From Escherichia coli (GTDB lineage: Bacteria > Pseudomonadota > Gammaproteobacteria > Enterobacterales > Enterobacteriaceae): a stretch of DNA of 7,507 bases. The notes below the pieces were generated by a model, which saw only the letters and a list, made by a program, of their open reading frames with translations, was not told the DNA's origin and did not search any database. The stretch lies in the NCBI RefSeq assembly GCF_003334315.1, contig NZ_QOWR01000092.1. The stretch is one strand, 5' to 3'. A program made the position numbers and the translations under genes. Positions 4,726 through 5,851 of the stretch are shown here, piece by piece. The stretch's first letter is position 1. Each line of letters starts with the position of its first letter.

Positions 4726-5851
4726 GAGAATGTTCCTCCGGATGTTGTTAAACCAGCCGGTGTGGTCATGAAAACAGCGCGCCACCTTCACCGGCATAAC
4801 AACCGGGGAGAAACGTAAAAAATAATCGGGAATGTGGCTGTCCGGAGATAAACGGGGGGATTGCGATGGCAGAGCCGTAGCGGAATCCCGGAGGGGGGTG
4901 TTGCGAAAAGATGCTTCCGCACGCACGCGCGATAAAGAGGGGATAGTTTTCGTGAGGACAGGGAGAGAAGCAGGCGTTCTGATAATTGCAGAGTTGTTTT
5001 CGGAGGTGGTTACAGTGAGTCAGCCCGTTCCTGGCGAGCAGGAGACTGATATCACCGATGGGATAAGGTTGTCTGATTGGTATTATAAATATAAGAAGTC
5101 ATCAGAGAGTAACGTAAAGGATTTGCCAGAATAACCTAAGAGAGTAAATCTCTCCGGTAACAGAGCGCTGTGAAGCATTCTGTATCAGAGTGCAGATACA
5201 TGAACGCTGATGCGTAAAATCAGCAGTGACACGCCAGCTCCCCCTATGCCCATTCCTGTATAAGACATGAACTGAGTGTATTAATGCTTCTGCCCTGAGA
5301 CTGAGCCGGTGAGTGAGGGGCTGAGAAATCCCTCTTGACACAGCTCTAACCAGAAATACTTCCCCGGTTGTTGCGGTGCGTCCGGATCCCCGATAACGGA
5401 ACACTAAGGCTGTATTGCGGGACACCGGGTAAGTAGCAGCCCGTAAGGCGTTCTGTCAACGCCAGAAAAAATGATTTCCCACACGCGTTATAGACTCACT
5501 CCTGTGGACCTGGAAGCCCGTAACTCTGCGGTTGCCCACTGACTGACGGAACTGACCGCAAATTTTACGAGTGCGTGCTGGGCTTCAGTCTGGTCACCTG
5601 AGCGTTCGGTAACGGAGGCGCGGGCGGTAATAGGCTGATTTTCAGGTATTACCGGCTTACAGCGTGTGGTTGATATTGAGGGGCTGTGAGTTTCGCGTAT
5701 TTGTCAGAAACCCAGACGAGTTTTCCTGTATGGGACGAAATAAGGCAGCGGCAATACCTGGAAAAATTTAATATGGTATGAAGGAGAACCTGTCGGTTAC
5801 GCTTAATATACCCGGTACACTGTCAGCTCAGGGGATACATGAACCGTTATC

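Follow-up and report, generated by a model that had tools for sequence, protein, structure and literature searches.

Genomic context of the tract

The window is the whole stretch of DNA analysed here, 7,507 nucleotides from E. coli (assembly GCF_003334315.1, contig NZ_QOWR01000092.1). The features that frame the tract under study are as follows.

552-2864 (+): IS66-family element (tnpA, tnpB, tnpC), about 1 kb downstream of the gene for a 205-aa protein
3823-4440 (-): gene for the 205-aa protein, which belongs to no family; directly downstream of alpA in every copy
4519..4725 (-): alpA, encoding a 68-aa AlpA/excisionase-type helix-turn-helix protein (from the ORF list); left boundary of the tract
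4726-5851: tract under study, 1126 nt, between alpA and the gene for a 67-aa zinc-ribbon protein
5852..6055 (-): gene for the 67-aa protein, with a zinc ribbon and a hydrophobic tail (from the ORF list); right boundary of the tract
6216-6821 (+): Gp2/YagK-like gene
7075-7446 (+): second zinc-ribbon gene

In RefSeq the alpA product is named either ‘AlpA family transcriptional regulator’ or ‘helix-turn-helix transcriptional regulator’, and it matches PHROG families of excisionases and transcriptional regulators (E = 7e-9). The 67-aa zinc-ribbon protein is the hypothetical protein WP_001297900.1 in all copies and falls in PHROG families of unknown function. No family was found for the 205-aa protein in NCBIfam, PHROG or PADLOC, and searches of the neighbouring genes with defence-system models returned nothing meaningful. 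In several genomes, PGAP also places a 65-aa ORF over the 205-aa gene, on the other strand. RefSeq flags tnpC of the IS66-family element as incomplete in a copy identical to the window, and the integrase side of the island is therefore probably disrupted in the window copy.

The tract is common. It was matched in 3653 of 5426 complete E. coli genomes, where the median number of places per genome is two. Identity of at least 99 per cent is seen in 916 records. The phage collection held no homologue; matches in the plasmid collection were essentially mislabelled chromosomes, with no true plasmid homologue among them. One layout recurs throughout thirteen syntenic E. coli RefSeq copies and some 120 metagenomic ones: alpA (-), a spacer of ~720 nt (~710-810 nt in the thirteen), hha (+), a further ~250-340 nt and the zinc-ribbon gene (-). 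The initial annotation of this DNA, made from the sequence alone, had remarked that the gap between alpA and the zinc-ribbon gene was unusually long. This is true of the annotation, but the length itself is a constant feature of the island family: the tract measures 1123-1329 nt in the eleven copies with both flanking genes intact, and hha takes up 213 nt of it where that gene is intact. The tract is very probably a composite of ordinary parts from a widespread E. coli island family with the order alpA, hha, zinc-ribbon gene and Gp2/YagK-like gene.

A mosaic of conserved and allele-specific modules

Comparison of the copies divides the tract into modules with different histories of conservation. 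Module A covers 4726-5095 and module B covers 5096-5432; they are followed by the remains of hha and by a tail.

4726..4853 (-): alpA-linked proximal segment of module A, with a Shine-Dalgarno sequence GGAGG (4739->4735) and a presumed leader and/or promoter of alpA
4854..5095 (no strand assigned): distal conserved spacer of the hha2/hha3-type arrangement, with invariant blocks (including an invariant 22-mer at 4974-4995) between variable, indel-prone stretches
5096..5432 (+): module B, allele B1, the hha3-type upstream region and presumed hha leader or regulatory DNA
5433..5601 (+): hha3-type Hha/YmoA pseudogene, recognized by tblastn, by alignment to the L008 coding sequence and by its score against the Hha model NF008191
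5602..5851 (no strand assigned): tail, allele 1, the 3' spacer that separates the dead hha3 from the zinc-ribbon gene convergent with it

Module A is 81-100 per cent identical across copies, compared with 90-100 per cent for the alpA coding sequence. Its proximal 128 nt (4726-4853) are the best-conserved part of the tract and hold the longest invariant runs among fifty-nine haplotypes (4729-4751, 4793-4809, 4811-4833 and 4844-4857). This segment goes with alpA in every arrangement, including the yagM-type loci L141 and L142, where it is 84-90 per cent identical and where the distal part, 4854-5095, is absent. The proximal segment and hha itself are all that these two loci have in common with the window. 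Module A therefore falls into two parts: 128 proximal nucleotides linked to alpA, and a distal stretch that goes with the hha2/hha3-type arrangement. Both yagM-type loci carry a gene for a 263-aa YagM-family protein between alpA and an intact hha (L141:2877-3668 and L142:2881-3672). We looked for a yagM remnant in the window and rejected the idea, finding no similarity at the protein or DNA level.

Module B occurs as three alleles, B1, B2 and B3, which cannot be aligned with one another except for a core at about 5186-5335. The window carries B1, which was found at 95 per cent identity or more in 2821 of 2829 matching records (2828 genomes). B1 matches no family in NCBIfam or PHROG and does not significantly resemble any other part of the window. 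One perfect 12-nt inverted match, between 4798-4809 and 5361-5372, raised the idea that 5096-5470 might have arisen by inverted duplication of sequence upstream of alpA, or else be foreign DNA. Local alignments against all parts of the window stayed at chance (z <= 3.3), and a third lineage (L034, L067 and L135) has sequence about 70 per cent identical to B1 upstream of an intact hha. We rejected both ideas; B1 is the native, fast-diverging upstream region of hha. The tail comes in two unrelated alleles among the compared copies. In the window it contains no terminator-like site and no family match, and its folding signal is weak (z = -2.6).

Several relatives carry insertions in this region, and the stretch from alpA to hha is a repeated target of differing insertion sequences.

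Within the tract of relatives: IS1 in H1; ISEc20 in L004 and L009, at about window 4895; IS2 in L006, at about window 5100
Within the tract of relatives, 3' of hha: IS66 in L008; IS3 in L014

In CFT073, the ISEc20 insertion goes together with a frameshifted alpA. Three further copies (L035, L036 and L109) have an insertion of ~190 nt in the B2 core, at the equivalent of about window 5320. It is flanked by a duplicated CTGAGAG and has short terminal inverted repeats (AATCGCC...GGCGATATT), and by these marks it looks like a small, non-autonomous, MITE-like mobile element.

A decayed hha gene

The initial annotation had listed a decayed gene among the possible contents of the tract, had proposed a translated search for gene remnants, and had said that a tract consisting of a frameshifted pseudogene would speak against its reading. 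With intact Hha from L007 as the query, tblastn matched window 5459-5593 (E = 1e-14, 63 per cent identity) with an in-frame stop, so that objection applies to part of the tract and no more. The hha3-type pseudogene at 5433-5601 makes up about 170 of the 1126 nt (~15 per cent); the remainder is non-coding in all tests run.

Over the coding part, 133 of 180 positions (74 per cent) are identical between the window and the 58-aa hha3-type coding sequence of L008. The start codon GTG has become GTA (5433-5435), several indels shift the frame, there are internal deletions of 4 and 7 nt, and stops occur in all three frames of 5433-5601. A further deletion has removed the 95 nt located after the hha3 stop in L003. 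Scored against NF008191, the NCBIfam Hha model, the best frame of the window reaches 19.8 bits (E = 7e-4), compared with 66 bits for the hha3-type 58-aa protein and 107 bits for the intact Hha of L007; the cut-off is 90. The window thus falls below the model cut-off and has no uninterrupted ORF of ~70 aa with a start codon, as a functional Hha/YmoA gene would have. It does combine significant homology at the syntenic position with disabling lesions, as expected of an Hha/YmoA pseudogene. Given the lost start, the frameshifts, the stops in every frame and the low Hha-model score, 5433-5601 is, going by its sequence, a dead copy of hha3, an island-borne Hha paralogue.

In copies that diverge further from the window, an intact 70-aa hha lies at the same syntenic place: L007, L014 and L017 and, in the yagM-type arrangement, L142. 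Among the thirteen compared RefSeq copies, hha is intact in L007, L014 and L017 and decayed in the rest. In the larger set of metagenomic and RefSeq extracts fetched with the invariant 22-mer, sixteen of 125 are intact and 109 decayed. RefSeq annotates nothing at the pseudogene site in copies identical to the window, yet gives an ‘Hha/YmoA family’ pseudogene or a short coding sequence at about window 5470-5635 in slightly diverged ones. PGAP thus leaves the site blank in the window-identical copies while flagging the remnant in less decayed relatives, and the annotation of this locus is inconsistent across thousands of genomes.

The hairpin GGCGTT-CTGTC-AACGCC that had been picked out in the tract does exist, at 5447-5463 (+), one base from where it had been placed. 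It lies inside the hha remnant, where indels set the window apart from hha3, and the L003, L004 and L008 alleles lack it; it is therefore incidental.

Relation to hha2 and hha3

The genes hha2 and hha3 have been described as horizontally spread paralogues, with hha3 transcribed at a low level (PMC4864382). We mapped the hha2/hha3 primer table in the supplement of Prieto et al. 2016 (PMC4864382) onto the copies. The P1 deletion arm for hha2 (EC042_4516) matches L007 and L014 with no mismatches, at the end of allele B2 plus ATGGAAGT, so B2 with its intact gene is hha2. For hha3 (EC042_4796), the 43-nt P1 upstream deletion arm maps to window 5397-5439 with two mismatches, at the end of allele B1, and the PCR primers match L003 and L008 without a mismatch. 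It follows that hha3 is the B1-linked allele. Neither hha3 PCR primer matches the window.

The closest described relative of the window locus is thus hha3 of enteroaggregative E. coli 042 (PMC4864382; PMC6480617), which has the same genomic position and flanks. The B1 upstream region of the window is the same allele as in L003 and L008, the copies with exact hha3 primer sites. Relative to hha3, however, the coding part of the window is destroyed, the PCR primer sites are gone and the 95 nt after the stop are missing. Copies of the hha2 type share the synteny of the window (alpA, spacer, hha, zinc-ribbon gene), a module A that is 81-87 per cent identical to it and the short conserved core upstream of hha. 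They differ in that hha2 is intact and scores above the Hha-model cut-off (107 bits), and in their upstream allele, B2, which is largely unalignable with that of the window. The tract is a known locus, hha3, in decayed form together with its regulatory DNA, and not a new element.

The chromosomal hha of E. coli belongs to the tomB-hha operon, in which the Hha-family gene has several hundred nucleotides before it on the same strand. Island hha genes likewise have several hundred same-strand nucleotides before them, but no TomB-like ORF or remnant was found upstream of hha in any allele, either in the ORF lists or in NCBIfam and PHROG family searches.

In RefSeq, hha3 is a 58-aa protein with a GTG start and no counterpart to about the first 26 positions of the Hha model. 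Compared with hha2 and canonical Hha, the published hha3 itself appears to be truncated at its N-terminus; it may be a decaying gene rather than a full paralogue. The hha3-type alleles lie at L008:3706-3882 and L003:3740-3883, to be compared with window 5433-5601. The 58-aa ORF aligns to positions 27-71 of the 72-position model, and all B1-linked copies lack about codons 1-20 of hha.

O157:H7 strains were scored as hha2/hha3-negative (PMC4864382). The window copy, which would score hha3-negative, fits this, because O157:H7 493/89 (L010) carries a virtually identical tract. PCR for hha2 and hha3 has been put forward as an indicator of virulence (PMC4864382). The presence or absence of a product reflects the stage of decay and not only the acquisition of the island, since 109 of the 125 copies are decayed and the window allele has lost both hha3 primer sites while the locus persists.

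Coding potential, RNA structure and recombination sites

The initial annotation saw no convincing ORF in the tract, and our results agree. Two ORFs can be drawn, one of 100 aa at 4832-5134 (+) and one of 107 aa at 5102-5425 (-), and neither belongs to an NCBIfam or PHROG family. When the ten longest stop-free segments in six frames were searched against NCBIfam and PHROG, none matched at E <= 1 save for a noise-level PHROG match (E = 0.11). Every frame of 4726-5095 is broken by indels of 1, 2 and 13 nt in relatives. There is no synonymous excess over the same stretch, where the synonymous fraction among variant codons is 0.13-0.19 in all six frames; in alpA, our positive control, it is 0.27 in the true frame against 0.07-0.09 in the other same-strand frames. 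A hidden, unannotated protein gene, whether an ORF of 77-100 aa at 4832-5134 (+) or the 107-aa ORF at 5102-5425 (-), would draw on the bare presence of these ORFs and on PGAP, which in some genomes calls a hypothetical protein over part of 4832-5134 (WP_001224230.1, WP_000840364.1). With the frame not kept between alleles, a flat synonymous fraction beside that of alpA, no family, no ribosome-binding site according to the initial annotation, and a minus-strand ORF that sits in sequence unalignable between alleles, we consider such a gene highly improbable.

RNA structure was assessed by a covariance-model scan, by folding and by alignment of relatives. The Rfam scan, over the whole window and both strands, gave no matches at E <= 1. 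A coarse folding scan put 5126-5245 at z = -4.2, but with 200 shuffles 5120-5250 fell to z = -2.3/-2.2. RNAalifold against column shuffles, applied to sixty-four module-A haplotypes, produced a single 7-bp hairpin at ~4903-4920 (-), on the alpA-sense strand (z = -4.5); it contains two G-U pairs and is not followed by a U-run, and the variants among the haplotypes weaken it, none of them being compensatory. The remaining alignment windows on both strands all had z > -2. We also considered the sole terminator-like site, 4796->4780, as an attenuator of alpA and rejected it, as such a site is at chance expectation and, judging from the alignment, its stem is weakened in the L007-type allele. A structured RNA in the 370 nt upstream of alpA or in the 5186-5335 core, acting as a riboregulatory 5' leader or as an independent or antisense sRNA, would account for long invariant blocks within a non-coding stretch and has the coarse scan and the one hairpin in its favour. 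Against this stand the empty Rfam scan, the lower score on reshuffling, the lack of compensatory changes, the ordinary z-scores elsewhere and the chance-level terminator, and we judge it quite unlikely. The non-coding RNA of the initial annotation, and the covarying base pairs by which it was to be recognized, thus found no backing.

The same holds for an origin or att-like site. The AT-rich block beside an excisionase gene and the insertion hot spot in relatives (IS1, IS2, ISEc20, IS66 and the ~190-nt element) might suggest an att-like recombination site, a transfer or replication origin, or a scar left by a mobile element. The tract, however, contains no tandem repeats, iterons or tRNA, and its dispersed repeats are short, two-copy and at chance level (the 12-nt inverted match has z = 2.5). 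It is internal to the island, flanked by the same genes in all copies, and lacks phage or true plasmid homologues. We give this explanation next to no credence.

The AT-rich block and conservation at the DNA level

An AT-rich block reported at about 5060..5110 was confirmed, and it coincides with the end of the conserved sequence.

5060..5110 (no strand assigned): AT-rich block with candidate back-to-back promoters, at the boundary of conserved and allele-specific sequence
5078-5086 (+): candidate extended -10 element TGgTATTAT, directed toward hha; the start would fall at ~5093, where conservation across alleles stops
5093->5088 and 5087->5082 (-): candidate -10 elements TATATT and TATAAT (perfect), directed toward alpA

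Over 5060-5110 the GC fraction is 0.33, a value within the lowest 0.4 per cent for 51-nt segments of the window; over 5076-5100 it is 0.20. The core sequence TGTCTGATTGGTATTATAAATATA (25 nt) is near-invariant in the variant table of 135 copies, also across B alleles. TATAAT-like hexamers had been reported on both strands, and they are present (TATAAT at 5087->5082, TGgTATTAT at 5078-5086), but no promoter score rises above chance. A scan for the sigma-70 consensus found no full -35/-10 match in the tract, and the best weight-matrix promoter score there is 8.4, less than the 9.9 that shuffled sequences reach as their median best. The two best sites both lie in the AT block.

Variable sites are clustered in 4726-5095. 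Between them are invariant runs of 23, 23, 17 and 14 nt; the three longest together cover 63 nt, where 35 would be expected (P < 0.0002; fifty-nine haplotypes, with non-homologous copies removed and the search seed masked). The best-conserved stretch is 4729-4857. This clustering could in part reflect recombination mosaicism and not constraint. Four GATAA cores, all on one strand, lie in the conserved blocks upstream of alpA. As the motif was chosen post hoc, their number does not reach significance, and the excess in their conservation is marginal (P = 0.027; the search seed contains one of the four).

A search of 298 Gb of species-representative genomes with an exact 22-mer from the AT block gave one match, where ~0.03 would be expected by chance. 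We dismissed this match (L013:5511-5532, a Clostridia MAG) as coincidence; it lies inside an unrelated gene encoding ...DISDWYYKYI....

A probable divergent regulatory region without its hha partner

Most likely, the tract is a divergent regulatory region of alpA and hha whose hha partner is gone. Direct observations are the synteny, the assignment of the alleles, the lesions of the pseudogene and the absence of a coding or RNA-structure signal; a link between the tract and H-NS/Hha is plausible by analogy with the prophages discussed below.

As a divergent regulatory region, the tract would be laid out as follows. The stretch 4726-5095 would be the non-coding region upstream of alpA, with its first 128 nt serving as the leader or promoter segment of alpA itself; these alpA-proximal nucleotides would hold the ribosome-binding site, the leader and possibly a promoter. 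The distal part of module A, up to the AT block, may be a control region shared by alpA (leftward) and hha (rightward). The AT block is likely to be the start region for hha and might also provide a second, distal promoter for alpA. Beyond it, 5096-5432 would be a long, fast-evolving leader or upstream region of the hha3 allele, presumably functionless now in the window copy, and 5602-5851 separates the 3' end of hha from the zinc-ribbon gene, which is convergent with it. A long 5' UTR or promoter region for alpA, as the initial annotation had suggested, is plausible, given the 128 nt that travel with alpA and the near-invariant AT block, although promoter scores in the tract do not exceed chance.

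The known systems that bear on regulation are prophages and islands with a functional connection between H-NS or Hha and alpA. In the Shewanella oneidensis prophage CP4So, H-NS binds and represses the alpA promoter via GATAATG sites (PMC5148205). In CP4-57 of E. coli K-12, alpA expression and excision are Hha-dependent (PMC2408971), and in strain 042, hha and hns mutants show derepression of genes in the duplicated island region linked to hha2 (PMC6480617). The CP4So alpA promoter (PMC5148205) resembles the window in having a regulatory region with GATAA(T) motifs before an AlpA-type excisionase gene. The K-12 CP4-57 alpA differs from the window in that its upstream gap is 43 nt and no hha lies beside it; on account of that gap we discarded CP4-57 as a precedent for an alpA leader of great length.

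By analogy with these systems, and in view of its AT-rich block and conserved GATAA cores, the tract may be a target of H-NS/Hha silencing, and an intact island Hha would then help to set the expression of the excisionase. The window copy would represent this circuit without a local Hha, with its hha side presumably decaying neutrally. Outside the 50-nt AT block, the GC content is 45-55 per cent, which is not typical of H-NS targets.

A stronger version of this proposal is that the invariant blocks of 4726-5095, the four GATAA cores, the AT block and the divergent Hha paralogue together form a dedicated silencing switch of the island, in which Hha2 or Hha3, acting with H-NS, would hold down the promoter of the excisionase gene. 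Wherever the local hha has been lost, as in the window and in most copies, the excision or stability of the island would then change. We consider such a switch unlikely. If it were true, the repeated decay of hha would be a selected step in the domestication of the island and not neutral rot.
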